Positions 237 to 16,614 of a stretch of DNA of 25,199 nucleotides are shown in pieces. The stretch's first letter is position 1, and the number at the start of each line of letters is the position of its first letter. Source of the DNA: a virus; UHGV virus genome UHGV-0245202; one strand, given 5' to 3'. The translations under genes were made by a program, and so were the position numbers. The notes under the pieces were generated by a model. The model saw nothing but the letters and a program-made list of their open reading frames with translations, ran no database searches and was not told where the DNA came from.

Positions 237-240
237 TTTC

Positions 241-996
241 TTATTCAGAATCAATATCTTTTAAATCATCCTGAATCGCTTGTGCGTTCGGATTTTCCTG
301 CTGTTTGAGTTCGCCGCCATTAGCGATGAAATCATGACGCTGGAAGTACGCTTCGCGCACCATAATATAAGGATCGGACGACTGACGCAGCAGACCATCG
401 GAATCCAGCAGCTGAGCGCGGGTTTCGATCCCTTCAAGCGTCCATTTACCCACAGACATCGGCCAGGTCAGCCAGGAAAGAACCGGGTAAAGACCATCCG
501 CCATATCACCACCATCATCACGCAGCGTGAAGCTACCGTAGAACGGTAACTGAACGTAAGGCCCATAACCCACGCCATAATGACCAAGCGTACTACCGAA
601 GCGGTGAGGTTCAGTCCGTTGCAGTTTCGGGTTCGCCATCCCTGCAACATCAATAAAGCCGCCCATCCCCAAAATGGTGTTCAGGAAAAAGCGGGTAAAG
701 TGGACCATCCCCTGATAAGGGTCGCCCTGCAAGAAGTAGTTAACCATCACCGCAGGTTCTTCAAGGTTGCCAGTAAAGTTGCTCAAACCATTACGCGCCG
801 GTTGCGGAACATAATCACGCCAGGCGACAGCGACCGGTCGAACAATATACGGGTCTAATACGTTGAAGTTGAAGTTGTACATGGTGCGGTTGAACCCTTC
901 TAACGGGTCAGAACGCCCTTGCTGATCTGTACCGGAACTCGCACACCCCACCAGAAGCGTAGTTCCCAGAGCAAGCGCCGACAGGCGAAGCTTCAT
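241..996 (-). CDS. mlaA: Outer-membrane lipoprotein MlaA (VacJ), phospholipid transport
   Basis: 251-aa ORF; N-terminal lipoprotein signal MKLRLSALALGTTLLVGC with lipobox LVGC; sequence recognised as MlaA/VacJ; ATG at 994-996 checked on the reverse strand; chromosomal GC-rich codon usage. Confidence 0.9.
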   Translation of the reverse strand: MKLRLSALALGTTLLVGCASSGTDQQGRSDPLEGFNRTMYNFNFNVLDPYIVRPVAVAWRDYVPQPARNGLSNFTGNLEEPAVMVNYFLQGDPYQGMVHFTRFFLNTILGMGGFIDVAGMANPKLQRTEPHRFGSTLGHYGVGYGPYVQLPFYGSFTLRDDGGDMADGLYPVLSWLTWPMSVGKWTLEGIETRAQLLDSDGLLRQSSDPYIMVREAYFQRHDFIANGGELKQQENPNAQAIQDDLKDIDSE

Positions 997-1289: not shown

Positions 1290-2222
1290 ATGGACAACGA
1301 CAAAATTGATCAACACAGCGACGAAATTGAAGTTGAGAGCGAAGAAAAAGAGCGCGGCAAAAAAATAGAAATAGATGAAGACCGACTCCCCTCCCGGGCG
1401 ATGGCAATTCATGAGCATATCCGCCAGGATGGTGAAAAAGAGCTGGAACGCGACGCAATGGCGCTACTGTGGTCAGCCATTGCGGCGGGTCTGTCGATGG
1501 GCGCTTCGCTACTGGCAAAAGGGATATTTCATGTCGAACTGGAAGGAGTGCCAGGCAGCTTCTTACTGGAGAATCTCGGTTATACCTTTGGTTTTATTAT
1601 CGTCATTATGGCCCGCCAGCAATTATTTACCGAAAACACCGTGACTGCGGTACTACCCGTCATGCAAAAACCGACAATGAGCAACGTCGGCTTACTTATG
1701 CGATTATGGGGCGTCGTGCTGCTGGGTAATATTCTCGGGACAGGTATTGCTGCATGGGCATTTGAATATATGCCTATCTTCAATGAAGAAACTCGCGATG
1801 CATTTGTCAAAATCGGCATGGATGTGATGAAGAACACCCCCAGCGAGATGTTTGCCAACGCGATCATTTCCGGCTGGCTGATCGCCACTATGGTTTGGAT
1901 GTTTCCTGCTGCGGGTGCGGCAAAGATTGTGGTGATTATATTGATGACCTGGCTTATTGCACTGGGTGACACCACCCACATCGTTGTCGGTTCTGTTGAA
2001 ATCCTCTATCTGGTGTTTAACGGCACGCTGCACTGGAGCGATTTCATCTGGCCCTTCGCACTACCTACTTTAGCGGGGAACATCTGCGGCGGCACCTTTA
2101 TCTTCGCGTTAATGAGTCATGCACAGATTCGTAACGACATGAGCAACAAGCGTAAAGCAGAAGCACGCCAAAAAGCAGAACGTGCGGAAAACATTAAGAA
2201 AAATGATAAAAACCCAGCATAA
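1290..2222 (+). CDS. yfdC: Inner-membrane protein YfdC, formate/nitrite transporter (FNT) family
   Basis: 310-aa ORF with multiple hydrophobic segments and a charged N-terminal tail; recognised as E. coli YfdC, the gene that lies between mlaA and argW; ATG at 1290 preceded by GAAGAGA. Confidence 0.85.
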   Translation: MDNDKIDQHSDEIEVESEEKERGKKIEIDEDRLPSRAMAIHEHIRQDGEKELERDAMALLWSAIAAGLSMGASLLAKGIFHVELEGVPGSFLLENLGYTFGFIIVIMARQQLFTENTVTAVLPVMQKPTMSNVGLLMRLWGVVLLGNILGTGIAAWAFEYMPIFNEETRDAFVKIGMDVMKNTPSEMFANAIISGWLIATMVWMFPAAGAAKIVVIILMTWLIALGDTTHIVVGSVEILYLVFNGTLHWSDFIWPFALPTLAGNICGGTFIFALMSHAQIRNDMSNKRKAEARQKAERAENIKKNDKNPA

Positions 2223-2257
2223 ATGGCGAGGGTTTAAGCAATCGAGCGGCAGCGTAC

Positions 2258-2286
2258 TTACCCCGCAGTCCATTAGCGGGTATACT
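2258..2286 (+). promoter_or_regulatory. Candidate sigma70 promoter for argW
   Basis: TATACT -10-like hexamer at 2281-2286, 11 nt upstream of the mature tRNA 5' end; weak -35 (TTACCC, 2258-2263) at 17-bp spacing. Pattern-based only. Confidence 0.3.
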
Positions 2287-2297
2287 CATGCCGCATT

Positions 2298-2372
2298 GTC
2301 CTCTTAGTTAAATGGATATAACGAGCCCCTCCTAAGGGCTAATTGCAGGTTCGATTCCTGCAGGGGACACCA
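2298..2372 (+). tRNA. argW: tRNA-Arg, anticodon CCU
   Basis: 75-nt sequence GTCCTCTTAGTTAAATGGATATAACGAGCCCCTCCTAAGGGCTAATTGCAGGTTCGATTCCTGCAGGGGACACCA; 7-bp acceptor stem with one G-U pair, T-loop GGTTCGATTCC, anticodon loop CTCCTAA with CCT at 2331-2333, encoded 3' CCA. Immediately followed by an integrase gene, the classic prophage attachment arrangement. Confidence 0.93.
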
Positions 2373-2467
2373 TTTATCAGTTCGCTCCCATCCGTACCAG
2401 TCCGCAAAATCCCCTGAATATCAAGCCTTCCGTAGATTCACAGTTCGTAATGGTTCGCGTCAGATCG

Positions 2468-2497
2468 TTGACAGCCGCACTCCATGACGGGTAAAAA
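2468..2497 (+). promoter_or_regulatory. Candidate integrase promoter
   Basis: Consensus -35 TTGACA at 2468-2473 and TAAAAA at 2492-2497 (18-bp spacer), about 37 bp upstream of the int ATG at 2534. Pattern-based only. Confidence 0.3.
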
Positions 2498-2533
2498 GTG
2501 GATAAAATAATTTTACCCACCGGATTTTTACCC

Positions 2534-3691
2534 ATGCTCACCGTTAAGCAGATTGAAGCAGCAAAGCCGAAAGAAAAACCATACCGCCTACTCGATGGTA
2601 ATGGCCTGTACCTTTATGTCCCTGTGTCAGGGAAAAAGGTATGGCAGCTTCGCTACAAGATTGACGGTAAGGAGAAAATCCTGACCGTAGGAAAATATCC
2701 GCTAATGACTTTGCAGGAGGCAAGAGATAAAGCATGGACCGCGAGGAAAGACATCTCGGTTGGCATCGATCCGGTAAAAGCGAAAAAGGCTTCGTCTAAC
2801 AACAATTCCTTTAGTGCGATTTACAAGGAATGGTACGAGCACAAGAAGCAAGTCTGGTCAGTAGGCTATGCAACTGAACTTGCAAAAATGTTTGATGACG
2901 ACATTTTACCTATCATCGGCGGCCTTGAAATTCAGGATATTGAGCCGATGCAACTGCTGGAAGTAATCCGCAGATTTGAAGATCGCGGTGCAATGGAGCG
3001 AGCCAACAAAGCCCGCAGAAGATGCGGCGAGGTTTTCCGTTACGCTATTGTCACTGGTAGGGCTAAATATAACCCGGCACCTGACCTTGCTGACGCCATG
3101 AAGGGATACCGCAAGAAAAACTTCCCGTTTCTTCCTGCAGACCAGATCCCGGCATTTAACAAAGCACTGGCAACATTTTCAGGAAGCATCGTATCGCTCA
3201 TTGCGACCAAAGTTTTACGCTACACAGCCCTCAGAACAAAAGAGCTTCGTTCCATGCTATGGAAGAACGTCGATTTTGAAAACAGGATTATCACCATCGA
3301 CGCCAGTGTGATGAAGGGACGCAAAATTCATGTGGTTCCTATGTCAGACCAGGTAGTTGAACTTCTCGCTACGCTAAGCTCAATCACTAAACCAGTGTCA
3401 GAGTTTGTTTTTGCCGGGCGCAACGATAAGAAGAAGCCAATCTGCGAGAACGCGGTATTACTTGTGATCAAACAAATCGGCTATGAGGGTCTGGAAAGCG
3501 GTCACGGATTCAGGCATGAATTCAGCACGATTATGAACGAGAACGAATGGCCTGCTGATGCTATTGAAGTGCAACTGGCACATGCCAACGGCGGATCTGT
3601 GCGCGGGATTTACAACCACGCTCAGTATCTCGATAAGCGCAGAGAAATGATGCAGTGGTGGGCAGACTGGCTTGATGAAAAGGTGGAGTGA
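2534..3691 (+). CDS. intS: Tyrosine site-specific integrase, IntS (CPS-53/KpLE1) type
   Basis: 385-aa product from the first ATG (2534); the ORF track start at 2498 is a GTG-initiated extension. Sequence recognised as E. coli IntS (MLTVKQIEAAKPKEKPYRLLDGNGLYLYVP...), with C-terminal catalytic region HGFRHEF and a conserved Tyr near the C-terminus; adjacent to and co-oriented with argW. Confidence 0.9.
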   Translation: MLTVKQIEAAKPKEKPYRLLDGNGLYLYVPVSGKKVWQLRYKIDGKEKILTVGKYPLMTLQEARDKAWTARKDISVGIDPVKAKKASSNNNSFSAIYKEWYEHKKQVWSVGYATELAKMFDDDILPIIGGLEIQDIEPMQLLEVIRRFEDRGAMERANKARRRCGEVFRYAIVTGRAKYNPAPDLADAMKGYRKKNFPFLPADQIPAFNKALATFSGSIVSLIATKVLRYTALRTKELRSMLWKNVDFENRIITIDASVMKGRKIHVVPMSDQVVELLATLSSITKPVSEFVFAGRNDKKKPICENAVLLVIKQIGYEGLESGHGFRHEFSTIMNENEWPADAIEVQLAHANGGSVRGIYNHAQYLDKRREMMQWWADWLDEKVE

Positions 3692-3844
3692 TCCACCTTA
3701 GCCACTATCGAAGAGCACAAAACCTTGCAATCCAGTACAAAGCTTTGTTTGTCTCAGTTTTGTCTCATCAACCACAGCAAGTCATCGATCGATTGAGACT
3801 TGGATGATAGACTTCATGCCTTTGATTATTAGCTGATAGAAGAA

Positions 3845-4207
3845 ATGTTAAAGCTATTTGCAAAGTACACCTCGATTGGTGTGCTGAACACACTTATACA
3901 CTGGGTAGTTTTTGGTGTATGTATCTATGTCGCGCATACAAACCAAGCTCTTGCAAACTTCGCAGGTTTTGTTGTGGCTGTGAGTTTTAGCTTCTTCGCG
4001 AATGCAAAATTCACATTCAAAGCATCAACTACAACGATGCGCTACATGTTATATGTCGGGTTCATGGGAACACTGAGTGCTACTGTTGGATGGGCTGCTG
4101 ATAGATGTTCACTTCCTCCAATTGTCACTCTTGTTACATTCTCCGCCATCAGCCTGGTGTGCGGTTTCGTCTATTCAAAGTTCATTGTCTTTAGGGATGC
4201 GAAATGA
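3845..4207 (+). CDS. gtrA: GtrA, bactoprenol-linked glucose flippase
   Basis: 120-aa small four-TM protein; recognised as GtrA/YfdG; 4-nt ATGA overlap with the next gene (gtrB ATG 4204, gtrA stop 4205-4207). Confidence 0.9.
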
Positions 4208-5115
4208 AGATATCTCTTGTAGTTCCTGTCTTCAATGAAGAAGAAGCGATACCAATTTTTTATAAAACGGTACGTGAATTCGAAGAGTTGAAGCCATATG
4301 AAGTTGAAATTGTTTTTATAAATGATGGTAGCAAAGACGCTACGGAGTCAATAATTAACGCTTTGGCTGTTTCTGATCCGCTAGTTGTTCCGCTGTCATT
4401 TACACGCAACTTTGGTAAAGAACCAGCATTGTTTGCAGGGTTAGACCATGCAACCGGGGATGCGGTAATCCCAATTGATGTTGACCTGCAAGACCCGATT
4501 GAAGTGATTCCTCATCTTATTGAAAAGTGGCAGGCAGGTGCTGATATGGTGCTTGCTAAACGTTCGGATCGTTCAACCGATGGGAAATTAAAACGAAAAA
4601 CAGCTGAGTGGTTCTACAAACTTCACAATAAAATAAGTAATCCAAAGATCGAGGACAATGTTGGCGACTTTAGACTAATGTCCAGAAATGTTGTTGAGAA
4701 TATTAAACTTCTACCAGAACGAAATCTATTCATGAAAGGAGTTCTAAGCTGGGTTGGTGGAGAAATAAGTATTGTTGAGTATGCCAGAGCGGAACGCATT
4801 GCGGGGACGACTAAATTTAATGGCTGGAAATTATGGAACTTAGCTCTTGAGGGTATAACTGGTTTTTCAACATTTCCTCTACGAATGTGGACATATATAG
4901 GATTATTTGTTGCAACAATATCATTCATGTACGGAGCATGGATGATATTGGATAAAATTTTATTTGGAAACAACGTACCAGGTTATCCATCACTTCTTGT
5001 TTCTATTCTTTTTCTTGGTGGGATTCAATTGATTGGCATTGGAGTCCTAGGTGAATATATAGGAAGAATCTATATTGAAACCAAAAAAAGACCTAGATAC
5101 CTTATAAAAAAATAG
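4204..5115 (+). CDS. gtrB: GtrB, bactoprenol glucosyltransferase (GT2 family)
   Basis: 303-aa product with an N-terminal GT2 domain ([17 protein letters not shown]-x-D region) and two C-terminal TM helices; recognised as GtrB/YfdH. Confidence 0.9.
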
Positions 5116-5122
5116 GATGCAT

Positions 5123-6577
5123 ATGAACTTTTTAATTAGAGAAAGCGAAAAGAAAGCATTTGCTTTATTATTTGCAACCGCATTGCTTTTTATATATCCA
5201 TTAATGCATTATGGTATATATTTTCGAGACGATCTACACAGATCTGTAACTGGATACTATGGATGGAGCGGCCTTGGTAGACCACTCGCAGATATAGTTA
5301 TAAAAGTAGCATCAGCAAGCGGAGATAGACTATTAGATATTTTCCCGTATAACTTAATACTATCTTGCGCCATGCTATCACTAGCATGTATACATATAGC
5401 TAGATTATTACAACATCTAAACATAAAAAAGCCAACGTTTTGTGCCTCATTGTTTATCTTTAATCCATTTTTTCTACAAAATCTAGCTTATAGATTTGAC
5501 TCCACAGGAATGTCTTTAGCACTTCTTCTTTGTGCGCTTTCATACACCTACCAAAATAACAATATTTATATATCATTGGTAATTAAAATTTTACTTGGTG
5601 TCGCAACACTTTCACTGTATCAACCATGTGCAAATCTATTCATTGGGTTGCTATCAATCGAGCTCTCTGCATTATTCATTACTAACAACACAAACAACAA
5701 AAAATTATTTTTAACATTAATCAAAAAAGCTGGAGTATTTTTATCATTCTACTCTATTTACTTTCTAATCGTAGCAAGAATATGGGGTTCAGAAAACAAT
5801 AGATCTGAAATCGTCAAGTTAAATACAGATGGATTAAATCATATTTATAATACATTCCAAAGACTCAATACCTTGCTTGAGTCATTTTTTAATGGTCCAG
5901 TTATTTTTTATTTTATACCACCGGTTATTTTATTATTTATTTTTATTATCCTTACCGTTTACAAAAATAGAAACAACTCGTTGGCAACCAAGATGCTTTT
6001 ATTATTGCTATCATTGAGCTCGGCATATATATCTCTTCTTGGGCCGACATTTATTCTTGTTGATGCGCCCGTATTTCCAAGAACGCTGGTAAGCTTCTCA
6101 ATCCTCTTTGTTTTATTTTCCATGTATATAATTTCACTTTGTGATAAGCTAAAATGCATTGCATTAATACCTGTAGTAACAGTAATAGCATTTAGCTCTC
6201 AATTTGCCAACGCACTGAACACCCAAAGAGAACATGAGAACTTTGTTTTAAATATGGTTGCATATGATTTAATGAATATAAATGGAATACAAAAAATTAA
6301 GACAGTGGGCAAGATAAGATTCAGTAAAAGAGCTGAATTACTCACAAATGATAAGCCTCTAATAAGCCAATCTATAAGCAGGGCTACTGAATTTCTTGCA
6401 ACTTATCAAATGGTTAACAAGGGCTTGAAAGGTGTAAGCGATGGTTATGGCATAGAAAAATCCAATAAGGAAGAGTTGGACTCATTCAAAAGCAATGGTG
6501 TTAAACCATATGTTGATAACAATGAATACTCAATATATGAAAATAATGGCGTTGCAATTGTAGTTTTTAAGGGATAA
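5123..6577 (+). CDS. Serotype-specific O-antigen glucosyltransferase (GtrC-type, third gene of the gtr operon)
   Basis: About 484 aa from the ATG at 5123 (AGGA 5 nt upstream; the alternative in-frame ATG at 5117 overlaps that RBS). Very hydrophobic polytopic N-terminal two-thirds with a soluble C-terminal domain; strongly AT-rich, unlike the flanking DNA; positioned directly after gtrA and gtrB. Specificity cannot be inferred from sequence. Confidence 0.75.
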   Translation: MNFLIRESEKKAFALLFATALLFIYPLMHYGIYFRDDLHRSVTGYYGWSGLGRPLADIVIKVASASGDRLLDIFPYNLILSCAMLSLACIHIARLLQHLNIKKPTFCASLFIFNPFFLQNLAYRFDSTGMSLALLLCALSYTYQNNNIYISLVIKILLGVATLSLYQPCANLFIGLLSIELSALFITNNTNNKKLFLTLIKKAGVFLSFYSIYFLIVARIWGSENNRSEIVKLNTDGLNHIYNTFQRLNTLLESFFNGPVIFYFIPPVILLFIFIILTVYKNRNNSLATKMLLLLLSLSSAYISLLGPTFILVDAPVFPRTLVSFSILFVLFSMYIISLCDKLKCIALIPVVTVIAFSSQFANALNTQREHENFVLNMVAYDLMNINGIQKIKTVGKIRFSKRAELLTNDKPLISQSISRATEFLATYQMVNKGLKGVSDGYGIEKSNKEELDSFKSNGVKPYVDNNEYSIYENNGVAIVVFKG

Positions 6578-6605
6578 TACGCAACTAAAATAGTTCTGCA
6601 TTGCT

Positions 6606-6643: not shown

Positions 6644-6664
6644 AAATTACGCCGCGACCAGTTA

Positions 6665-8638
6665 TCACCTCCATTTAAACCGAGGTGAATATTCACCGTT
6701 ATTGAATCTTCCTATACTTACCTGTATTGTCGCCGGAGAATCAGAAAGAACCTCGGTGCTATGCAATGATAGTATAAGTGATGATGATTCTATATCTCTA
6801 TCTATTTCGATCACATAACCATAATCTCGTTCTGGCTCTGTAAAATAAGCTATTGGGTTTCCGTTTGCTGCAATGGTAAATCTTCCACCAACAAATTTAC
6901 CCTTGAACATAACATGTATTTTTATCCGACTAACTCCCTTCGGTAAAACACAACCAGCATTTAATGATGCTGTAGAGTTTATATTGAAATCTTTCCTTAT
7001 CACTGTGTATGGAATTGCATATAAAGCTTCAGCAAAGCTTGATTGAGACTGATACTCTGTCGCAGCAATAGAGCTCCCCCCCATAATTCTAAATCCTCCA
7101 ACACCGGAGAACACACTATTAAAAGCATCCACAGCTTTCGTAAAGTTACCAATACAAACGGGTGTTTCTGCATCATTAATGAATTGTTCCCTTGAATACA
7201 ATGTCACACTGTTTATATATGTACTTTTATAACCACCAATATCATCAGGGCTTAAAAATCCATACCCATTGGAACCATCAGATACGCCATTAAATTCTGT
7301 ATAATAGCTACAAAATTCGTTAGATGATCTTGGAGATGTCTCAATCCATCCAAATCCAAAATTTCTCTCTGACTGAATATTGCTATAAGTACACCCACTA
7401 CTCCGCGTTATAAGGCCTGCGCCACTATAGCGCGTCGCTGAGTCTGGTGATGGGTCAAAATCACCATTGCGACCATTTGTGTGTGTACGTATACGTAAAA
7501 AACTAACAGAATTTACAGCCAAATCATCAGTTTCTCCTTGAGTAGGATAACCAATAACAACTCCGCGCCCATAGTTATCATGTGCAACTATTGTTCCAAA
7601 TGAACAGAACCAAGACTGATAAACTGATATGCCGACGACACGAGCATTTATGGCTGTAATATTGTCGCAATGTGACTCATTTGTAAAATATCTAAAATAA
7701 AATCCATTTGTCGCCTTATTATCACAATCAGAAATTATATTTGTAATTCTTACTGAGCTTACATCTTCAGTTGGTGTAACTCCAATTGGAGAGCGAGAGC
7801 ATCTAATAACAGCCTTTTTAATTGCAACATCCCCAATCCATTTAATGGTTGTAGCAAATCTATTACCTGCTCGCAGAGAATTTCCATATCCTCTCATATC
7901 CAAGCCATTTGGAGGCACAAACTCATCTGTAATTCCAATAACACCAGCTGGAAGGATTAAAGGTAGTTTATTATCAGATGCGAATTTAGCAGCACTGGTT
8001 AACTCATTAATTGAATCTTTTTCTCCATTTAAATTAACCCCCCACCATTTTAATAGAACTTCTCCATTGATATTTCGTTTCCACCGCCTCCCAATTGCGT
8101 CAATAAGTATTGTTCCTCCATTATCTTGAGATGTAGAATCATACTTATCAATTTCAAATATTCCATTTCCACCATCAAATATATTTCGCACACCATATAC
8201 ATAGCATCTATGCATATTCCCGCTATAATTTCTAATATCTTCGTAATTTGCTCCACCTATATATCCCAAACCGAAGCTTTGAGATAATTGAACTTTAAAT
8301 TGATCAGGTTCATACTTCAGCACATTCGGAAAATAAAACTGCTGAGCACCGTATGCATCATAAACAGCCATAGAATGGCCTTGCACAGTTACGAACTTGG
8401 CAATCTGTCCGTTATATACCGGGTAACCAGCAGCGTTAATGATGATTGGTTGCGAAACAGGAACGTGAGAGCCGTCTTCGTTCTCCACATAAACCTGAAT
8501 CTGGTTTTCAGGATTTACAGGGTCAGTGTCAATTTTACCGATATAAATTTTGCCATTGGCTACAGCTTTAAAAGAACGAGCCATAGTGAAGAGTTGAGAA
8601 GGCATGCTTACCACAACATTTGCGGTGATATCTGACAT
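6665..8638 (-). CDS. Tailspike protein (gp9 position); P22-type N-terminal head-binding domain with a divergent receptor-binding domain
   Basis: 657 aa from the ATG at 8636-8638 (GGAG 9 nt upstream); the ORF track start at 8686 adds 16 codons with no RBS. The first ~110 aa ([11 protein letters not shown]...[21 protein letters not shown]...[13 protein letters not shown]...[10 protein letters not shown]) match the P22 gp9 head-binding domain from memory; the remainder does not resemble the P22 endorhamnosidase domain and is AT-rich. Confidence 0.85.
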
Positions 8639-8663
8639 TTCATTGCTCCAGACGAATGATATG

Positions 8664-8686
8664 ATGCAATCACGATGTGATTGCAT
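8664..8686. promoter_or_regulatory. Perfect 23-bp palindrome, candidate operator (Mnt-type) between mnt and the tailspike
   Basis: ATGCAATCAC-GAT-GTGATTGCAT: 10-bp arms that are exact reverse complements around a 3-bp centre, in the 121-bp divergent gap between the tailspike ATG (8638) and the mnt ATG (8760). Confidence 0.4.
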
Positions 8687-8759
8687 ACCGAAATGGTACT
8701 ATTGAGTATTTATCCAGTAGGTTACGATGCCATTCCACCCAACTGGTGAGGCATCACGG

Positions 8760-9020
8760 ATGTACAGCAAATACGACGAGGCGCAGTTTCACTTGAGACT
8801 TCCGCATGAACTCCACGCGAAAATTAAGCAGCGTGCGAAGATGAATAACAGGTCGCTGAACTCAGAGATAATTGCAGCGATTGAAGAATCATTGGATAAA
8901 CAAAGCTCTGCATCAGTTTACATTGACGATGCAGAGCGTATGGCAGAACAACAATCGGATATGGTTAAGAAAATTGTCTTTGATACGCTCAAGAAGCTAT
9001 ATAAAAAAGACAGTAGCTAA
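8760..9020 (+). CDS. mnt: Mnt-like ribbon-helix-helix repressor (immI-type)
   Basis: 86 aa from the ATG at 8760 (GGTGAGG upstream); the ORF track start at 8727 adds 11 codons. N-terminal RHH beta-strand motif (FHLRLPHELHAKIKQRA...GRSLNSEII) and a C-terminal tail DAERMAEQQSDMVKKIVFDTLKKLYKK matching the P22 Mnt tetramerisation helix from memory; located at the P22 immI position and transcribed opposite to the late genes, as P22 mnt is. Confidence 0.8.
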   Translation: MYSKYDEAQFHLRLPHELHAKIKQRAKMNNRSLNSEIIAAIEESLDKQSSASVYIDDAERMAEQQSDMVKKIVFDTLKKLYKKDSS

Positions 9021-9040: not shown

Positions 9041-9118
9041 ATGCAAAGAGATATGCTGAATATTGCGTTCTACATATTTGGTTTTTGCACGTTCCTGGTG
9101 TTTGCGAAGCTATTCTGA
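9041..9118 (+). CDS. Putative 25-aa hydrophobic small protein (MQRDMLNIAFYIFGFCTFLVFAKLF); unannotated small ORF
   Basis: ATG at 9041 preceded by GGAGG (9032-9036, 4-nt spacer); 25 codons ending TGA at 9116-9118; a short polar N-terminus followed by a ~20-residue hydrophobic stretch. Lies 21 bp after the mnt stop on the same strand, and its 3' end overlaps the convergent gp16 stop codon (9110-9112). Below the 60-aa cut-off of the ORF track. Could be chance. Confidence 0.25.
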   Translation: MQRDMLNIAFYIFGFCTFLVFAKLF

Positions 9119-11503
9119 CAACGCATCAGACTTGGCACCCTGAGTAAGGGCGTTAATGGCCTTTTGCGCCTGCTGCATGGCTTTCTCAAACGCTGTTGAT
9201 CCGCGTGGGGTGTTTGCCATTCGGAGCATTGCATTTCTGAATGGCTCGCTCTCATAGGCGCGCGTAAGAAGTCCGTAGCTTACCGCTGCGCCAGTTGTCG
9301 CAGGGTTCATTGCTGTCCCATATCCGATAATGAACGGGATGGTTTGCTGCCCTGTTGGTGTTGTTACTGCCGCTTTTGCAGCCTGCTGCGTGGATTGCAG
9401 GTAGTTTTTCAATCCTTTCAGATAAGCGGCTTCCTGACCTTTAAATGTGATGCCAGTCTGGTTTTGCAGGATGTTAAGCTGTCGAAGGAACTGGTCAGGG
9501 GAACCACCTGATTTCTCCATCGCCTTTCCAATGATGCCATTGCGCATTTGCGCCCTGCCAACACGACCAACTGAGTTATACAGCGTCTTAATTTCCGATT
9601 TGTTCTTGCTGAATAGCATGTTGTTGACAACTTCCGGCGTCAGGTCGCCTTTCATGAGAACATTCTTCAGCCTGGTATTCTTTAGTTTCGCCGCTTCGTC
9701 AGCGTAGACGGCATTGGCCTGCTGATATTTACGGAGAGTATCGTTGCCAAGATTCTGACCAATGGCACCATTGATATCGTCGGTCATTGCCTTGTAAACG
9801 CGCTGAATGGCAGCATCGGAACGGTTTGGTAACACTGGTCGCTCCCCCTTCACGTCCATTCTGAACTGGCTGCGCAGATCGCTTAATTGCTTCAAATCCA
9901 GATTTACCGGACCATCAGGACCAGCATTGCGAACAAGCTCATCACGATAGGACTGAAGTTTTGAAATAGTCTCGTTATCAGCAACCTTACCAAGCTTCTG
10001 CAGGTTAGATATTTCTGTATCAATCTGCTGAATTGCTCTTGCAGGCTGAATGTTTATTCCCGCCATAGCATTCTGAACCTGCTCAAGACGGTTCCCTGCA
10101 GCACGACGAATTCCTGATGTTTTCGCTTTAAGGCTGTCAATAACAACAGCTGGATCATACTCACCGAATTTATCAGCAAATCTCTGCACCAACTGGCTTC
10201 TCGCTTCCTGTTGCGTTGCTCTCATTCCGCTTGTGCCAGCCAGGGGGATATTTTCCGCTGTCGTCTGCGCCATTTTTCCGACGCGGGAAATGGGTTGTAA
10301 CAGGTCTGTGGTGTGCAGAGGAACTCCTTCACGTTCTGCAAATCTGATAGCCTGTTGCGCTTCTGGTGCTATCGAACCACGAACACCACGATAAGCAGCG
10401 CCTAATCCACGTCCGGCAGCGTTAATAGCACCGCCAGCCAGCACACCAACGCCTAAATCGGTGGCGAGTGCTTCCGCATCATCTTTCGCACTGTTTGCAG
10501 CAAGTGATCCAACTGCGTTTTCTGCGAGAAGGCGAGTTGCCCCCTGAGCAATTCGACCAGCAAGTGTTGGTGCCTGTGCTGCCGCTCTCTCAACGCCAGC
10601 AGGAGTGAGGTAAGGCAATGCTTCAGCAAATACCCTTCCCTCTGTCGTTTGTGGAGTCAGCGCGCCTTGCTGAAGGCCAAAGTCCTGCTCTAATCCCTGC
10701 GTTGTTACTCGTGGTGCTGGTTGATATGTACCATCGCCAATGCCGAGTTTACCGCCAGCCCAAGCCGCCGCGCTTGTTACAGCATCAGTGAGTTCAGCAG
10801 GTATGTTCGCTACGTTGATTCCTGCCTGTAGTAAGCCTCGCCCGGTTTCAGCAAGTCCATTACCAAGGTCAGACATTATTCCGCCTTGCTGCTGAACAGG
10901 TTTCGGTGCGACAGAACTTACGGGTTGAGGTGGCTGCTGACTGGCTGCCTGCTGCTCAATCTGAGCAAATGGATTATTTGGGTCTGACTGCACGCCTGAT
11001 GCCGATACTTGTTCGGATGACTGTGCTTCCAGTTGTGCAAACGGGTTGTTAGGGTCTTGCTGAGGATGTACCTTTGCAGAGGTGGCGCGCTGTTCGACTG
11101 TTGAGTCTGTCACCGGGTCACCCGCCCATTGAGCAAAGCGATCATCAACGTAACCGCGGCCTTCAGGTCCTGGCGTATATTCACCACGCTTTGCCTTCAT
11201 AACGTTGCCGGGACCGTCGTGATAAGCCTGAAGAGCGTCACGCCAGTTACCAAACTGCTGGTACATCTTTGCCAGATAGCGCGCGCCAGCGTCAGCCTGA
11301 TATTCGGGGTTTTGCATTTGCTCATCGGTATAACCCATATCACGCCATGTCCCAGGCATGACCTGAGTCAATCCTACAGCCCCGGCGGAGCTTACTGCGG
11401 CAGGGTTGTAAGAAGACTCCTTGGCACCCAGTGCAGTCATCAACCCTTCTGGCACACCGTAACGTGCGCCAGCCTGCTCTAACAAATCACGGTAATTAGC
11501 CAT
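9110..11503 (-). CDS. Ejection (DNA-transfer) protein at the gp16 position, with an N-terminal lytic transglycosylase (SLT) domain
   Basis: 797 aa; last gene of the gp7-gp20-gp16 ejection block by position. The N-terminal ~130 aa carry family-1 lytic transglycosylase motifs (GAKESSYNPAAVSSAGAVGLTQVMPGTW ... ALQAYHDGPGNV); this is followed by a Q/P-rich linker with a duplicated DPNNPFAQ(L/I)E motif and a long Ala/Gly-rich C-terminal region. Start codon abuts the upstream stop (TAA at 11504-11506, ATG at 11501-11503). Confidence 0.85.
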   Translation of the reverse strand: MANYRDLLEQAGARYGVPEGLMTALGAKESSYNPAAVSSAGAVGLTQVMPGTWRDMGYTDEQMQNPEYQADAGARYLAKMYQQFGNWRDALQAYHDGPGNVMKAKRGEYTPGPEGRGYVDDRFAQWAGDPVTDSTVEQRATSAKVHPQQDPNNPFAQLEAQSSEQVSASGVQSDPNNPFAQIEQQAASQQPPQPVSSVAPKPVQQQGGIMSDLGNGLAETGRGLLQAGINVANIPAELTDAVTSAAAWAGGKLGIGDGTYQPAPRVTTQGLEQDFGLQQGALTPQTTEGRVFAEALPYLTPAGVERAAAQAPTLAGRIAQGATRLLAENAVGSLAANSAKDDAEALATDLGVGVLAGGAINAAGRGLGAAYRGVRGSIAPEAQQAIRFAEREGVPLHTTDLLQPISRVGKMAQTTAENIPLAGTSGMRATQQEARSQLVQRFADKFGEYDPAVVIDSLKAKTSGIRRAAGNRLEQVQNAMAGINIQPARAIQQIDTEISNLQKLGKVADNETISKLQSYRDELVRNAGPDGPVNLDLKQLSDLRSQFRMDVKGERPVLPNRSDAAIQRVYKAMTDDINGAIGQNLGNDTLRKYQQANAVYADEAAKLKNTRLKNVLMKGDLTPEVVNNMLFSKNKSEIKTLYNSVGRVGRAQMRNGIIGKAMEKSGGSPDQFLRQLNILQNQTGITFKGQEAAYLKGLKNYLQSTQQAAKAAVTTPTGQQTIPFIIGYGTAMNPATTGAAVSYGLLTRAYESEPFRNAMLRMANTPRGSTAFEKAMQQAQKAINALTQGAKSDALSE

Positions 11504-12835
11504 TTACTGCCCCAAAGATGGAAGATATCCGTAGCGATTAATGAAGTCGATTGACAGCTCGGGGTGTTGCTTCAGGTAATCTATAGAAGCCTGAGGCGCT
11601 TCCACTCGCTTGATACCGTTTTGCTGAACGTACTTACCAACCGCCTCATTACGCTTCTGGTTGAGCGTGTTCAGGATGACGCCAGCGTTGCGACGAAAGG
11701 ACTCCTCGCTCTGCGAGTTCTGCAGCGAACCAACAGCCTGGTCGAGCTTTTTGCCCTCGGCATCAGAAAGTGCGCCCATGCCTCGCATGGCCTGAACCGC
11801 TGTCAGGTATGCTTGGGATTTAAAGGTATCAAGTCGTGCCTGAGTGTCTGCAGCCTGTGAGCCTGGAACGTTGGGGATTACTCCACGTAAGCCTGTAATG
11901 CTCTTAAGTGAAGGAGAACTAACGATATCGTTCAGAGTGAACATGCTGGTTGTGAGGGTGTTGATGCCGTCTTTGTAGCCATCATTTAGCGCTTGCTGCT
12001 TCTGCTGCAACTGCTGATTGTTGGCTGCTATGCGGCTCTGTATTTCCTGGCGCTTCAGGTCGTTAGTTTCTGCTGATAGCATCCGGTCAAGGCGCTTATT
12101 TTCGTTGTTAATGCGGTTTGTTTCTGCGTCCAGATTAATGCGCTGCTGACCTAAATTCGCCTGGATATCTTGCCCGCGCATTGTGATTGCCTGATTCCGA
12201 GCGGCGGTTTGCGAATCCAGATCCTGACCGCGCATGGTAACCTGGCGACCCTGCATTTTATCCTGTAGGTCAAAGTATTTTTCGGGTCCGAGACTGTTCA
12301 TCCCCAGGTGATCGACAAATTCGCCGAACTGCCGCGGGTTCTGTTGGTACATCTGAGCGACGTCCTGAGGATTAACGCCAACACGAGCTAACTCACCGGC
12401 GTTGTTTTGCAGCCATGATTGCATTGCTTCTGGAGACGATGACGCAAGGCGTGCGCCAGCCGCTAAGGTGCCGATAGAATTACGCTGGTCTTCATCAATG
12501 AACCCCATGCCTTTACGGACGGATTCAATCTGGTCTGGATATTGAGTAGCCAACTGACGCAAAGCACCGCGATCACCAGACGCATAAGCATTAGCGTACG
12601 CCTGCTGAAATTCTTTCTGCCGCTGAGCCTGCTTTTCCTGCTGAAACACCCCTGCAATACCTGAAAGGCCTTGCAAAGCAGTCAGCCCAACATTGTTAGC
12701 GCCTGAACGCTCAATATCATTGTTCTGCCTGATAAGCTGAAGCGTATTGCCGATGTCATTTACGCTCGGAGCGTTTGAGTTGACGCCGCCGATACCAGCC
12801 AACAATCCGCCGTTTGTTCCTTGCCAAGTAGCCAT
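11504..12835 (-). CDS. Ejection (DNA-transfer) protein at the gp20 position
   Basis: 443 aa, between the gp7-like and gp16-like genes in P22 order; Gln/Asn-rich with coiled-coil-like central repeats typical of Podoviridae internal/ejection proteins. Assigned by synteny and composition; homology not verified. Confidence 0.7.
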   Translation of the reverse strand: MATWQGTNGGLLAGIGGVNSNAPSVNDIGNTLQLIRQNNDIERSGANNVGLTALQGLSGIAGVFQQEKQAQRQKEFQQAYANAYASGDRGALRQLATQYPDQIESVRKGMGFIDEDQRNSIGTLAAGARLASSSPEAMQSWLQNNAGELARVGVNPQDVAQMYQQNPRQFGEFVDHLGMNSLGPEKYFDLQDKMQGRQVTMRGQDLDSQTAARNQAITMRGQDIQANLGQQRINLDAETNRINNENKRLDRMLSAETNDLKRQEIQSRIAANNQQLQQKQQALNDGYKDGINTLTTSMFTLNDIVSSPSLKSITGLRGVIPNVPGSQAADTQARLDTFKSQAYLTAVQAMRGMGALSDAEGKKLDQAVGSLQNSQSEESFRRNAGVILNTLNQKRNEAVGKYVQQNGIKRVEAPQASIDYLKQHPELSIDFINRYGYLPSLGQ

Positions 12836-12844
12836 GATTACCCC

Positions 12845-13537
12845 TTAAAACAACGAGCCAAGCAATCCGATACCAGCACCAATGCCAGCGCCCCAAGGCG
12901 TTGATGTTCCCAAAAGGCTGGCAAGACCTGCACCGGCAATCGCACCGGACGTTCCGCCGCTAATTGCTGTCTGAAGACTTGATGGTTTGTTGGCATTAGC
13001 AGCGGCAAGAGCTGCGCTTTGCTGTGCAATGCTGCTCATGTTGTTGGCGTACGTCTGCCCGGCGTTTGCCTGACCTTGCAGAGCACCAAGCCCAACGTTT
13101 GCCAGATTGTTGTAATTGCTCATCTGGTTTGATAACCAAGACTGACCGAGAGTCGGCGCGATCGTAGCCAGTTGATTGCTTGTGGCTGTCGAACCAAGTC
13201 CTCCCGTAGCCTCCGCAGCAGCAAGACTCTGGTAACGAGCCTGACCTGCAAGGTCTTTATACTGCTGAGAGTTGTAATACTGATTAAGTGCCTGCCCCTG
13301 ACCTTCTAAACTGGAAAGGTTCTGAAGCTGGTTAACATACTGCTCCGCAAGAGGCGTGAACGGAGCAAGGTTTTTCATGATCGTCTGCCACTGCTGATTT
13401 TGCAGGTCTGCGGCATACTTCTGAGCTTCTGCTGCATATTTTGCGCTTTTATCAGAACTGCCACCTTTCCCGCCTTTTTCAGGGCAATAAGGTTCCTCAC
13501 CGCGCAGTTTTCTGCCCAGTTTAAATGCATATAACAT
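12845..13537 (-). CDS. Ejection (DNA-transfer) protein at the gp7 position
   Basis: 230 aa (P22 gp7 is about 229 aa); N-terminus MLYAFKLGRKLRGEEPYCPEKGGKGG and a Gly/Ala-rich hydrophobic C-terminus; position immediately after the gp14-like gene matches P22 order. Confidence 0.75.
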   Translation of the reverse strand: MLYAFKLGRKLRGEEPYCPEKGGKGGSSDKSAKYAAEAQKYAADLQNQQWQTIMKNLAPFTPLAEQYVNQLQNLSSLEGQGQALNQYYNSQQYKDLAGQARYQSLAAAEATGGLGSTATSNQLATIAPTLGQSWLSNQMSNYNNLANVGLGALQGQANAGQTYANNMSSIAQQSAALAAANANKPSSLQTAISGGTSGAIAGAGLASLLGTSTPWGAGIGAGIGLLGSLF

Positions 13538-13539: not shown

Positions 13540-13995
13540 CTATCTCCCGTGATTCAGGAAGTCGATTAGTTCTTCGCGTGTGGCGCTGTAAAACGTCACG
13601 TCATCCACGCCTTTGAAGTATTTCTTGATGGTTCCTACACGCTTAAGGCCAATCATTGCGCAGTACATCTGACCGTGGCGGAATTTTCGTGCAGCAAATG
13701 ATGTGACGCACTGAACGGTGGTGTTAGTCAGAATGTATCGCCAGAACGCCAGCCCGATTTCCTTGCTGAATCCACGAACCTCTGGCAGGTACATGGCGTG
13801 GCAATCGAATGTCAGCGGCTGAATCTCCTGATAGTAAACAATGCCGCCGAACTGCCCGTGCACGTTCACCTCAAAGTAACGGCAATCATGTTTATAGTCG
13901 TATCCATCACCGTTGTTGCTCCCGGCAATAATGTCAGGGTGATTTCCGACTGCTTCTATCAGGTCGATGTTTCGCGTTGGTTTGAATGTAATCAT
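13540..13995 (-). CDS. gp14-position protein (ejection/virion-assembly associated), function uncertain
   Basis: 151-aa ORF between the tail needle gene and the gp7-like gene, where P22 encodes gp14; one-nucleotide overlap with the upstream stop. Assignment is by synteny only; I do not recognise the sequence. Confidence 0.5.
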   Translation of the reverse strand: MITFKPTRNIDLIEAVGNHPDIIAGSNNGDGYDYKHDCRYFEVNVHGQFGGIVYYQEIQPLTFDCHAMYLPEVRGFSKEIGLAFWRYILTNTTVQCVTSFAARKFRHGQMYCAMIGLKRVGTIKKYFKGVDDVTFYSATREELIDFLNHGR

Positions 13996-14696
13996 CAGTC
14001 AATCAGCCCATGTAATCTAAGTGCCGTTTCAAGCGCCAGAATACGCTGCCGCGCCTGCTGCAAACCTGTAGCGAGTGCTGAGACTTCGGATTGCGTGTAC
14101 GTAGTGCCGACAGCGTATGACTGGTTAGCGTTGAATGCGCCGAGGAGTGCCGTTCCGGTTGCCGCTGTCCATCCTGTCTGACGAGCACCGATAACCTTGG
14201 TGCCGCCGACTGAATAGGATGTTGTTACGTTGAGGGGGGATGCCAGCGATTGTGTTGCTGTTGCTGTTTTCGATACGTAATCGTCCTGCAATGCAGAAAT
14301 ATTTCCTTCAGCCTCCGTCACTCTACCATCAAGAGCACTGACATCAGCCTGCAAGGTGACTATTTCACCTTCAGCCGTGGTTAGTCTGACATCCAGCGAC
14401 GCGATTGCATTGGTATTTGCAGTAATACGGATTTCATGGTCGTCTACGTCGATGCGGAGCTGACGAATTCTTTCTTCGTGATCGACCAGAATAACATCCT
14501 GCTCATCGTTCCTGACCTGTGCATCATAAGCGCCCTGTCCGGCCTCGTTGGCCTTGTTAGCCACGTTACCAACATCAGTGCCCTGTGCGATAACGTAAAG
14601 CAGATACGACTGCGAGAAGATATTGCGTGGAAGGACTGATGTGTCGAGCCGTGTAGCCTGAATGATTACCGGCACATTGAGATTCGAATCCGCCAT
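13995..14696 (-). CDS. Tail needle protein (gp26)
   Basis: 233 aa from the ATG at 14694-14696 (TAATG overlap with the gp10 stop); the ORF track start at 14798 lies inside gp10. N-terminal and coiled-coil regions ([12 protein letters not shown]...[14 protein letters not shown]...[20 protein letters not shown]...[14 protein letters not shown]...TTAEGEI...[31 protein letters not shown]) match the P22 gp26 trimeric needle from memory, ending ...L.AHGLID. Confidence 0.88.
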
Positions 14697-16114
14697 TACT
14701 CGATCCTTATCTGGCAGCCAGACAGAGTGACAGGTGACTTCGTGATAACGCGCAATTTGAAGCCAATGTTTTTCCTGATGCGCCCTACTTTCTTCCACAA
14801 AACGCGTTTGTCGTAAACGAACGGTTCATTCTGCTCAATCATCTGCTCACGTCCGTAATTGATTCCGTCAGTGGTTGCAGAGAGGAACAGGCGGTCAGCG
14901 TACTGCGCAACGCCAGTTGAAGATTCAACTTCAAGGTCGAAAACTCTGGCGTTATCCGCTTTGAAGAGGGGAGTAAACAGCAGGTGTTCCTGTTGCTTGT
15001 CGTACTGGCTGCTGATATCGAACTGCAATTTGCCGGTAACCGATTCCAGCTTATCGCCGCACGTTATCTGATTTCCTTCGTAAATGAAGTCGATAGCGCG
15101 GTACACATCGTCATACAGGCCTGTTTTCAACACACACCATTGCGGACCATTGGCGCTTGAAGATGCGTCGTACACGAGGACGTGACGCGTAAGATGGATA
15201 ATCAGCAGTTCATGCGCATCAAATCGCAGCGATTCCATCACACCATCAGCCAGTTCATCAGCAGTGTAGGAGCGTAGTATTTTCTCAATGCTCGCGCTGG
15301 CGATTGGTGATACCTGACCGGAGCCGATGATATACACAGACGGCGCACCTGTTGCCGGATTGCTGATGAACGCATACGAGTCAGCAAACGGCGTTTTGCA
15401 GTAGGTTCCGGCAATGCCTTTCTGCACCATCAGCGATGGCTGGGCGACATACAAAGCAGCACCAACGGTGGTTGCACCAGTCAGGGAAAAATACTCAATC
15501 GTCGATGAACCAAAGCAGACGATGAAGTCTCGCCATGTTCCGATTCCGATGATGCCGTCAGGCTGCGACTCGGCACGATATTGTGCGCTGTAGCGGTCAG
15601 GATGTGATTCGTCTTCAAGGTCAGTGATAAACCATGAATCAGTGCCGTCTTTTGACCACGCATAACGCCCACGCAAGCGCGTAATGTCGCGAACTGAACC
15701 TAACTCATACTGAGTGAATCCACTGTCTGTAGGCCAGTTTGAGACGGTTTTAACCGTGCCATCATAGCGATACTCGATCAGTTGGCCATTAACGCCTACC
15801 GCCTGTGATGTTCGACCATGCGCCATTGATACGCGACCACTTCCGGCAACATCACCGACTTCACTTTCGCCTTTGTAGAGCTTCCCACCACACACGCGAT
15901 AAACAGCACTCTGCGCCATGTTGTACTCGACGCCGCGCGATATACCGTTCACATTAGAACGTTTGGCAATGCCCGGGAATGAGCGAAGATATCCGCTGCT
16001 GTTGAGGATTTCTTTGGGTGTAGCCAGCATATTCACTGGCAGATAGTCGATATAGTCGGCGCTTCGAAAGTCTTTACCGACACCTTTCATAAGCGGAAGT
16101 TGCTGAATCGGCAT
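14696..16114 (-). CDS. Tail hub protein (gp10)
   Basis: 472 aa, the same length as P22 gp10, at the syntenic position between gp4 and gp26; translationally coupled to neighbours. Confidence 0.85.
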
Positions 16115-16614
16115 TATTCGCTCCCGTTATCGCAAGGTTTCTTTCGGTGGAAGTAATTACAACCGTTCCACTTCGCCAACTGGTTACCGCTACCAACAGG
16201 CATACGGTTAGGATAACCGGACTTACATTTAGCGGCTTTTGCTCTATCCATTGCAGACAGTTTGACGAGTCGCTCTTTCCCGTATCTGGCAGTGGTTATA
16301 AGTTTTGCAGGCGCTTCCAGCGCATAATCCGGTGCAATGCGGCAGGCAAGGTTGAAAATGACAGCATTGATAGCGTTATTTGATAAACCGTGCTCATCGC
16401 CCGGATCTGGAGAGACATCTGCATCAGCGAAAATGTAGCCAACGTTGATACCAGGTGACACATCACCGCCAAGCCATTCAGCCATCATCATTTCAAGGTC
16501 GTTGACGCCGTCTTCCATAGACTGCGGTTCGACATCGGTTAACGTGGCATTTGATGCCACACCGAGCTTACGTAATGCCGCAAGAACTAAATCACCCTTC
16601 GTTGTCAGGTTCAT
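16114..16614 (-). CDS. Head completion / tail adaptor protein (gp4)
   Basis: 166 aa from the ATG at 16612-16614; matches P22 gp4 from memory ([37 protein letters not shown] ... [23 protein letters not shown] ... YP.RMP.GSGN). The ORF track start at 16689 adds 25 codons ([11 protein letters not shown]...) that overlap the upstream small ORF in another frame. Confidence 0.85.

Follow-up and report, generated by a model that had tools for sequence, protein, structure and literature searches.

The window, as we call the whole 25,199-nt stretch of viral DNA analysed here (UHGV-0245202), joins the integration junction of a cryptic E. coli K-12 element, CPS-53 (KplE1), to the morphogenesis genes of a P22-type phage. 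The locus thus raises the question of what kind of phage this is: whether, as proposed in an earlier note made from the sequence, it is a phage related to the CPS-53 ancestor, intact or nearly so and with a layout of its own, or a phage that has only its integration region in common with K-12. The window is an entire metagenome contig (ENA ERZ27230570 k103_7128, MEGAHIT-style) that ends at 25199 within the endolysin gene. Our analysis indicates that it very probably comprises a host junction and the left part (23 kb) of a temperate, P22-like (Lederbergvirus-type) phage of E. coli, 39 kb long, complete and probably active, which is integrated at argW by means of an IntS/TorI recombination module (Table 1). 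The element can accordingly be annotated as a P22-like prophage at argW that has a gtrABC conversion cassette and belongs to the IntS/TorI type already published, and its layout needs no new explanation.

Table 1. Features of the window, with the evidence for each assignment
Feature	Coordinates	Strand	Evidence or remark
mlaA (host flank)	241..996	-	251-aa ORF; 99.2% DNA identity to K-12 mlaA
yfdC (host flank)	1290..2222	+	310-aa ORF; 98.1% DNA identity to K-12 yfdC
argW, tRNA-Arg(CCT)	2298..2372	+	ARAGORN; 100% identical to K-12 argW; 3′ end rebuilt by the phage
Attachment core (attL crossover), CTGCAGGGGACACCAT	2358..2373	+	Start of homology to phage attP regions
P′ arm of attL, overlapping the integrase promoter region	2374..2533	+	Near-invariant across six attL/attP sequences
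IntS-type tyrosine integrase, 385 aa	2534..3691	+	Pfam Arm-DNA-bind_3, Phage_int_M, Phage_integrase
int-gtrA spacer with gtr leader and promoter region	3692..3844	+	Lacks the P22 Dam/OxyR phase-variation block
gtrA, 120 aa, predicted flippase for bactoprenol-linked glucose	3845..4207	+	PF04138
gtrB, 303 aa, predicted bactoprenol glucosyltransferase	4204..5115	+	PF00535 (GT2)
gtrC-type predicted serotype-specific glucosyltransferase, 484 aa (486 aa from the ATG at 5117)	5123..6577	+	PF14264 Glucos_trans_II
Tailspike	6665..8686 (6665-8638, 657 aa, in other assemblies)	-	N-terminal P22 Head_binding domain (Pfam)
Mnt/Arc-like repressor, immI region remnant	8727..9020	+	PF11423 Repressor_Mnt, PF03869 Arc
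gp16-like ejection protein, 797 aa, N-terminal SLT lytic transglycosylase domain	9110..11503	-	PF01464 SLT; PF26808 Phage_P22_gp16 on identical protein
gp20-like ejection protein	11504..12835	-	PF16928 Inj_translocase
gp7 ejection protein	12845..13537	-	PF25688 P22_gp7, E = 1.8e-134
gp14-like protein (DUF2824)	13540..13995	-	PF11039
gp26 tail needle	13995..14696	-	phrog_1219; match from residue 35 of the longer ORF
gp10 head closure protein	14696..16114	-	phrog_578
gp4 head-tail adaptor	16114..16614	-	phrog_637
Coat protein gp5	16873..18168	-	phrog_283, phrog_22632
Scaffolding protein gp8	18168..19079	-	phrog_648
Portal protein gp1	19093..21258	-	phrog_156
Terminase large subunit gp2 (TerL)	21259..22758	-	phrog_2, phrog_5653
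Terminase small subunit gp3 (TerS)	22736..23224	-	phrog_606
Rz spanin; Rz1 embedded at 24402-24617	24349..24786	-	phrog_13
Endolysin gene, 3′ part, cut by contig end	24783..25199	-	Open frame to window end

Virion module and completeness of the prophage

Beyond the gtr genes, the junction runs on into an intact P22-type virion module, as the earlier note had read it, and all of the genes can be assigned by Pfam or PHROGs. The module is complete by gene content, with every open reading frame at full length, and follows the P22-type order 3, 2, 1, 8, 5, 4, 10, 26, 14, 7, 20, 16, 9. At the DNA level it is ~80% identical to P22 and 96–98% identical to IME10 and Dewey. In the lysis cassette, the embedded Rz1 is a 71-aa open reading frame with the motif LLVVSAC, a putative lipoprotein signal, and the endolysin gene is found complete (165 aa, PF00959) in a near-identical locus (L016).

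Sequences identical or nearly identical to the window carry the phage further. In particular, the 39,251-bp contig ERZ807494 NODE_3 is identical to window positions 2358–21503 at 19,146 of 19,146 positions, the stretch retrieved; its gene order is int, attP and TorI, followed by the early-left operon, cI, cro and cII, and, judging by its length and gene content, it is probably circular, with no host DNA. In the assembly of an isolate, GCA_042164875.1, argW is occupied by the same prophage, with identities of 99.99% over 1–21503 and 99.97% over 14349–25199; the stretch covered there extends, by way of the lysis genes, Q, the nin region, DnaB, O, cII and cro, as far as cI (locus L016). The joined pieces amount to ~39,238 bp, compared with the 39,251 bp of ERZ807494 NODE_3. 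Among 5,426 complete E. coli genomes there is no exact match, the best having 91% coverage and 96.9% identity, and among sequenced phages no record covers at least 80% of the prophage part.

Judged from these copies elsewhere, the present copy of the prophage looks intact, because the phage-only contig provides the early region and TorI. The copy could instead be defective, a remnant truncated or mutated beyond 25199 whose complete-looking left half is misleading; the contig does stop inside the endolysin gene, the window shows neither an early region nor attR, and remnants are common at the argW locus. We consider this unlikely, given the full-length virion genes, the identity of 2358–21503 to a contig of genome length, and the isolate prophage that runs on, at 99.97–99.99% identity, through lysis, replication and immunity genes. 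Moreover, the lysis cassette at the contig break is shared at >99% with many other prophages, and a metagenome assembly could plausibly be interrupted by a repeat of this kind.

A recombination module shared with K-12 CPS-53

The window is colinear, with one gap, with mlaA-yfdC-argW-intS-yfdG-yfdH of K-12 MG1655 over positions 1–5108. At the DNA level the host flank is 98.65% identical and the prophage part 91.7%, with a drop to ~75% after 4600, within gtrB. The int-gtrA-gtrB junction beside argW is the CPS-53 junction, as the earlier note had recognized, and the limits that it gave, 2298–5115, are exact, the first being the start of the tRNA and the second the end of gtrB. The note had further described the three encoded proteins as the same as or extremely close to their K-12 counterparts, which holds for Int (383 of 385 residues identical to IntS, 99.5%) and GtrA (117 of 120 identical to YfdG, 97.5%) but is generous for GtrB (276 of 306 identical to YfdH, 90.2%). 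Likewise, the nucleotide alignment to argW-intS-yfdGHI, which the note had named as a check, is close through 5108 but ends there, and GtrC is unrelated to YfdI, the product of the third gtr gene of CPS-53 (17.5% identity).

Apart from these genes, the likeness to K-12 KplE1/CPS-53 (Panis et al. 2007, 2010, 2012) extends to the att core, the P′ arm, and the position of int beside the tRNA in the same orientation, with gtrA and gtrB next. The right end, torI-attR, is also common to K-12 CPS-53 and this phage type (about 340 bp at 94–98%), and the TorI of K-12 is identical to that of the 100%-matching phage contig. In contrast, K-12 CPS-53 keeps only 10.2 kb and has no immunity region and no virion genes.

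The two shared ends would fit the proposal that CPS-53 was once a P22-like podovirus and decayed from a phage to which the element, intact or nearly so, is related. In addition, other strains have argW remnants of 7.8–10.4 kb in which the same gtrC is found with a P22-type tailspike gene that is truncated, and therefore phages of this lineage do decay to the size of CPS-53. However, the interior of CPS-53 largely refutes this descent and makes it very improbable. Specifically, blastn and tblastn place none of the genes from yfdI to yfdT in the window, nor any from tfaS to yfdS; the interior contains tail-fibre assembly genes and aligns in three colinear blocks, at 97.7–98.1% identity, with vB_EcoM-720R4, a Mu-tailed myovirus that itself has no blastn match to the window; and the yfdM-yfdN-yfdO replication segment is 98.5% identical to Shigella phage SfII. 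By these alignments, the interior of CPS-53 derives from an SfII-like myovirus by two deletions, and CPS-53 shares only its two ends with phages of the present type. What the two have in common thus stems from mosaic exchange of a module and does not point to whole phages of common origin. K-12 CPS-53 did not arise by decay of a P22-like phage, and the module of att-int-gtrAB and torI is one that passes from one phage body to another, unrelated one. Of the relationship proposed in the earlier note, the intact appearance of the phage stands, but the relatedness to CPS-53 stops at the module.

Attachment site and proposed integration mechanism

The att core corresponds to the last 15–16 nt of argW, and the tRNA is intact in the window. 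One copy of the core is present, and a search of the window for a second copy (attR) found none. The window is homologous to the attP regions of Dewey, IME10, Hf4s and the ERZ807494 contig from exactly the core (2358) onward, and an alignment of six attL/attP sequences diverges exactly there. K-12 CPS-53 has an identical core at both ends, and the att site of Sf6, HK620, KplE1 and Kapi1 (PMC8787464) is the core found here. Because homology to free phage genomes begins at the core, and xis/torI lies just beyond it in the free-phage sequences, attP can be placed between xis/torI and int.

The integrase gene adjoins attL in the same orientation as the tRNA, and its product retains the arm-binding, central and catalytic domains, with 99.5% identity to the integrase of CUS-3 and 99.2% to that of Hf4s. 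A promoter is predicted inside the P′ arm, and a promoter-like site, ATGACG-16-AATAAT, is found at 2484–2511. The region 2373–2533 differs from K-12 by four mismatches (97.5% identity), and in the corresponding region of K-12 attL the binding sites of IntS and TorI have been mapped together with PintS (PMC2951348). In the ERZ807494 phage contig, TorI is identical to K-12 TorI at 66 of 66 residues and is encoded 73 nt upstream of the attP core; in a complete relative (CP148366), TorI is likewise at the opposite (attR) end, with attP between xis and int.

We propose that IntS joins attP with the last 15–16 nt of argW. Since attP lies between torI/xis and int, the integrated int would be located at attL beside the tRNA, and TorI would be located at attR. 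The integrase gene would be read from its own promoter in the P′ arm of attL, and the sequence conservation of this region suggests that the promoter may be repressed by IntS and TorI, as it is in K-12. Upon induction, TorI would be supplied from the early-left operon, leading to excision. The far end is predicted to consist of torI, followed by CTGCAGGGGACACCA, followed by host DNA, about 39.2 kb from position 2358.

That the host-phage junction is a chimera of the metagenome assembler, with no real integration behind it, is scarcely credible even though the window is a MEGAHIT-style contig and two other short-read contigs (L040 and L041) break exactly at the att core, as the junction falls exactly at the known 16-nt core with an intact argW rebuilt, and recurs both at 99.99% identity in isolate genomes (L027 and L036) and in several complete E. 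coli chromosomes.

The int-gtr layout among P22-like phages

The gene layout of the locus is already published: the recombination module of KplE1, HK620, Sf6 and CUS-3 has been described by Panis et al. (PMC2951348, PMC3509656) and is restated in the paper on Kapi1 (PMC8787464). The argW-integrating P22-like phages Sf6, HK620, CUS-3, Kapi1, IME10, Dewey and Louie have integrases of 98.7–99.5% identity to that of the window and attP between int and xis (PMC8787464). The slot between int and the tailspike gene holds an O-acetylase gene in Sf6 (PMC8787464). The same slot is empty in Dewey, where the order is tailspike, int, attP, excisionase, as well as in IME10 and the L041 contig, whereas it holds gtrABC here.

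The layout recurs in phage Hf4s (MT833387), reportedly an O-seroconverting P22-like coliphage from the 2021 work of Kulikov et al. Hf4s has the order xis, attP, int, gtrA, gtrB, gtrC and a convergent tailspike gene, together with a P22-type virion, and its GtrA and GtrB are 97.5% and 90% identical to those of the window. It differs in having its own GtrC, annotated as epsilon34-like, and in the tailspike receptor domain, the match between the two tailspikes being restricted to the head-binding domain (62%).

P22 resembles the window in the order of its virion genes, in the vegetative order and orientation xis, int, gtrA, gtrB, gtrC and convergent gene 9, and in a homologous gtr leader. Nevertheless, its integrase is unrelated (no tblastn hit at 1e-5) and it integrates in thrW. 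Specifically, a 46-nt attP block identical to thrW lies between int and gtrA in P22, so that int and gtr come to lie at opposite ends of the prophage. P22 also has a Dam/OxyR block of four GATC sites and a full immI region (sieA, mnt, arc, ant), and the window has neither.

These comparisons bear out two of the statements made about the layout in the earlier note, namely that int and gtr are read in one direction (int and gtrABC are all on the plus strand) and that attP is on the opposite side of int relative to P22. They do not support its third, that the int-gtr arrangement is distinct: the arrangement has been described, the order in Hf4s is identical, and the vegetative order in P22 is the same, with only the position of attP differing.

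The gtrABC cassette and its proposed role in lysogenic conversion

The gtrABC genes are placed between int and the convergent tailspike gene in a one-operon arrangement, in which the reading frames of gtrA and gtrB overlap and gtrC starts at most 10 nt from the gtrB stop codon. GtrA and GtrB are 79% and 86.8% identical to their P22 counterparts. GtrC is 27% identical to P22 GtrC and at best 34.7% identical to a protein of any sequenced phage, and the GC content of its gene is 31–35%.

Based on their families, the three proteins would act in sequence: GtrB may put glucose on bactoprenol phosphate, GtrA may flip the loaded glucose across the membrane, and the serotype-specific GtrC may transfer it to the O-antigen. 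Glucosylation of the O-antigen could in turn alter the receptor of the phage's own tailspike.

In the P22-type phase-variable gtr region, four GATC sites, in two pairs, overlap three OxyR half-sites upstream of gtrA (Broadbent et al. 2010, PMC2909390). Such a Dam/OxyR switch is not present upstream of gtrA in the window, as judged by alignment with the P22 int-attP-gtrA region and by the GATC count. The alignment has a gap of ~73 nt where P22 has GATC sites 1–3, and from the int stop codon to gtrA there are two GATC sites (3690 and 3787), compared with four in P22. From this sequence, gtr is predicted not to be phase-variable.

A GtrC-tailspike pair and a possible swap of the integration module

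The receptor domain of the tailspike has no close phage homologue, the best match being 39.5% identical. In GCA_904842335.1 (L035), the block from gtrABC to the virion genes is 99.989% identical to the window and is attached to a lambda-type att site, which lies at ybhB/bio. We put at about even the chance that this occurrence of one phage body with two integration modules records a very recent natural swap, with its breakpoint in the 3′ end of int, and that the GtrC and tailspike receptor domain, a pair found in no sequenced phage, may define an uncharacterised E. coli O-antigen specificity and glucosylation. The new GtrC-tailspike pair could be relevant to the typing of O-antigens or to the host range of phages, and the near-identical phages with different integration modules constitute a natural pair. 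In GCA_904842335.1, the 3′-terminal 84 nt of the IntS gene remain as a scar beside the lambda-like arm.

The int-gtr module of CPS-53 is joined to a P22-type virion block

The MG1655 order mlaA-yfdC-argW-intS-yfdG-yfdH is colinear with positions 1-5108 of the window in a DNA alignment, with one gap. The earlier note placed the module at 2298-5115, which are exactly the tRNA start and the GtrB end, and its claim of near-sameness to K-12 holds for Int and GtrA and is somewhat generous for GtrB. Homology to K-12 DNA ends at the gtrB end, and GtrC shares only 17.5% protein identity with YfdI, so the two proteins are unrelated. Within gtrB, DNA identity to yfdH drops from about 92% to about 75% over 4600-5108, which suggests a recombination breakpoint within the gene. 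The int-gtrABC genes are followed by a complete P22-type virion gene set on the minus strand.

Features of the window and identity to the K-12 CPS-53 left end
Feature	Coordinates	Strand	Remarks	DNA identity to K-12	Protein identity to K-12
Host flank			upstream of tRNA	98.65%
mlaA	241-996	minus	host flank
yfdC	1290-2222	plus	host flank
argW, tRNA-Arg(CCT)	2298-2372		ARAGORN; sole tRNA found in window	100%
argW-int spacer (attL)				97.5%
Tyrosine integrase, 385 aa	2534-3691	plus	arm-binding, central and catalytic domains; vs intS	96.6%	383/385
GtrA	3845-4207	plus	vs yfdG	94.5%	117/120
GtrB	4204-5115	plus	family-2 glycosyltransferase; vs yfdH	83.3% (about 75% after 4600)	276/306
GtrC-type glucosyltransferase	5117/5123-6577	plus	PF14264
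Tailspike	6665-8686	minus	P22 head-binding domain
Mnt/Arc-like small gene	8727-9020	plus	between tailspike and gp16
gp16-like ejection protein, 797 aa	9110-11503	minus	N-terminal SLT lytic transglycosylase domain
gp20, gp7, gp14, gp26 needle, gp10, gp4		minus	virion set
Coat, scaffold, portal, terminase large and small subunits		minus	virion set
Two small genes, Rz/Rz1, endolysin gene 3' part			past terminase genes; endolysin gene runs off the end

In P22 the genes sieA, mnt, arc and ant separate gp16 from the tailspike, whereas window 8687-9109 contains one Mnt/Arc-like gene only; the immI region is therefore reduced. The gp16-like protein varies from 612 to 875 aa among relatives. The closest complete genome lacks a match to window 10816-12299, which covers the 5' end of the gp16-like gene and the 3' part of gp20.

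CPS-53 is best explained as a decayed myovirus

CPS-53 and the P22-like argW phages share the left end (core to gtrB) and the right end (torI-attR, about 340 bp) only. The interior of CPS-53 contains tail-fibre assembly genes, and its tfaS-yfdS segment (7316-12362 of the K-12 locus) aligns in three colinear blocks with the Mu-tailed myovirus vB_EcoM-720R4 (ON470603.1), at 97.7-98.1% identity; the replication block also matches SfII, at 98.5%. The three-block match implies two deletions from an SfII-like phage, one joint corresponding to the loss of about 24.8 kb with the virion, lysis and nin genes, the other to the loss of about 3.2 kb with the immunity region. A blastn comparison of vB_EcoM-720R4 with the window gave no match. 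Because only the ends are shared and the interior is colinear with vB_EcoM-720R4, we reject a decayed P22-like phage as the source of CPS-53, which is best read as a decayed SfII-like myovirus with the same integration and gtrAB module. The proposed kinship of the window phage to the CPS-53 ancestor thus applies to the module (core-gtrB and torI-attR), but not to the myovirus-derived interior.

True remnants of the window phage type occur elsewhere. The exact window GtrC is present in four E. coli genomes, in argW elements that are 7.8-10.4 kb long and bounded by an att core on either side; two of these elements have a truncated tailspike and IS1. These four elements form a decay series from the window phage type.

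Integration modules and slot cargo vary among relatives

The gtrABC-to-virion block from window 3608 to 21503 is also found, 99.989% identical, in a prophage of GCA_904842335.1 (L035), where the block abuts the lambda att core GCTTTTTTATACTAA adjacent to ybhB and bioA (L035 17813-18120). The sequence adjoining GCTTTTTTATACTAA, we assume, resembles the lambda P arm. The IntS gene persists there as a scar of its last 84 nt and nothing more, and the prophage looks like the product of a recent swap of integration modules. In a second related locus (L029), a copy 99.7% identical from window 3710 on abuts CP4-like island genes.

The slot between int and the tailspike varies in cargo among phages. 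Specifically, it holds gtrABC in the window phage and Hf4s, an MBOAT acyltransferase and a 339-aa protein in another argW prophage (L031, 16041-17495), and nothing in Dewey, IME10 and a 39-kb Logan contig (L041, 177-3446) whose Int protein is identical to that of the window.

attP lies on the opposite side of int relative to P22

The 16-nt att core CTGCAGGGGACACCAT occurs once in the window, at 2358-2373, and at both CPS-53 ends in K-12. Homology to the free Dewey and IME10 phage genomes begins exactly at 2358. In an alignment of six attL/attP sequences, the core is the exact point where host and phage left arms part, and the sequence between the core and the int start codon hardly varies. The gene order is tailspike, int, attP, excisionase in Dewey, and excisionase, attP, int, gtrA, gtrB, gtrC, convergent tailspike in Hf4s, whereas in P22 gtrA (2393-2755) and int (3104-4267) flank a 46-nt block (3044-3089) that is identical to the thrW 3' end. 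The 2358 homology start, these gene orders and the P22 block bear out the prediction that attP is on the opposite side of int. The adjacency and common direction of int and gtr, which had been considered unlike P22, are also present in the P22 vegetative map; attP position is the only difference in int-gtr arrangement. Since P22 attP lies between int and gtrA, int and gtr are at opposite ends of the P22 prophage.

Nor is the layout distinct, as had been suggested, having been described as the IntS/TorI module. In this module, attL overlaps the integrase promoter, and int and the TorI directionality factor gene are transcribed separately (PMC2951348); it is conserved in KplE1, HK620, Sf6, CUS-3 and other argW prophages (PMC2951348; PMC3509656). 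Kapi1, Sf6, HK620 and KplE1 all have attP between int and xis, and the att sequence given for Kapi1 is the same as here (PMC8787464). Integrases at least 95% identical to the window Int are found in 38 records of the phage collection. Furthermore, the int-gtrABC-tailspike arrangement recurs in Hf4s (Int 99.2%, GtrA 97.5%, GtrB 90% identical), an O-seroconverting P22-like coliphage that has been characterised (cited in PMC10743462). The element type, mechanism and layout are all known.

Near-identity to studied proteins and family membership suggest how the module would work. IntS would recombine attP with attB at the argW 3' end, the phage copy rebuilding the tRNA. In the lysogen, int would be expressed from a promoter inside the P' arm, for which there is a candidate at 2484-2511, and by analogy with K-12 this promoter would be held down by IntS and TorI. 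Upon induction, TorI from the early-left operon would direct excision. GtrB, GtrA and GtrC would glucosylate the O-antigen, probably blocking re-adsorption via the phage's own tailspike.

The phage is very probably intact

The window matches metagenome contig ENA ERZ27230570 k103_7128 over its full extent (25,199 bp, 100%, same coordinates). The contig terminates inside the endolysin gene, and the surrounding lysis cassette is >99% identical to many other prophages; this repeated cassette probably explains the assembly break. A second contig, ENA ERZ807494 NODE_3 (39,251 bp), is identical to window 2358-21503 at 19,146/19,146 aligned positions, the match starting exactly at the att core. Past int come the attP core and the gene for a 66-aa protein that matches K-12 TorI at every residue, together with a full early-left operon (RecT, Gp157, Ea22-like and others), cI, cro, cII and the replication gene start. 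The isolate assembly GCA_042164875.1 has the same prophage at argW (99.991% over 1-21503, 99.97% over 14349-25199), continuing through endolysin, holin, Q, the nin region, DnaB, an O-like gene, cII, cro and cI, and overlaps the ERZ807494 contig at 99.9% identity. The joined pieces of all three amount to about 39,238 bp, and the 39,251-bp contig fits a genome-length, circularly permuted, phage-only molecule. CP148366 contains a complete relative, 40.1 kb long between attL and a 15-nt attR adjoining torI. The phage is therefore very probably intact, in line with the earlier note's intact or near-intact relative; for the window copy, this is inferred from the other sequences.

Two Logan short-read contigs (L040 and L041) begin exactly at the att core, at position 1, which fits assembly graph branching at the core, for example between integrated and excised forms or differing argW flanks.

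GtrC and the tailspike receptor domain are the new features

The int-gtrA spacer (3692-3844) is homologous to the P22 gtr leader. Dam/OxyR phase variation of P22 gtr needs four GATC sites (PMC2909390). The P22 leader has these four, whereas the window spacer lacks an about 73-nt block holding three of them, so phase variation of this kind is not expected here; the two GATC sites still present are those at 3690 and 3787. Among about 50,000 phage records, neither GtrC nor the tailspike receptor domain has a close counterpart (best protein identity 34.7% and 39.5%, respectively), and we regard them as the two new features, at the level of family members. GC content falls to 31-38% over 5123-8686.
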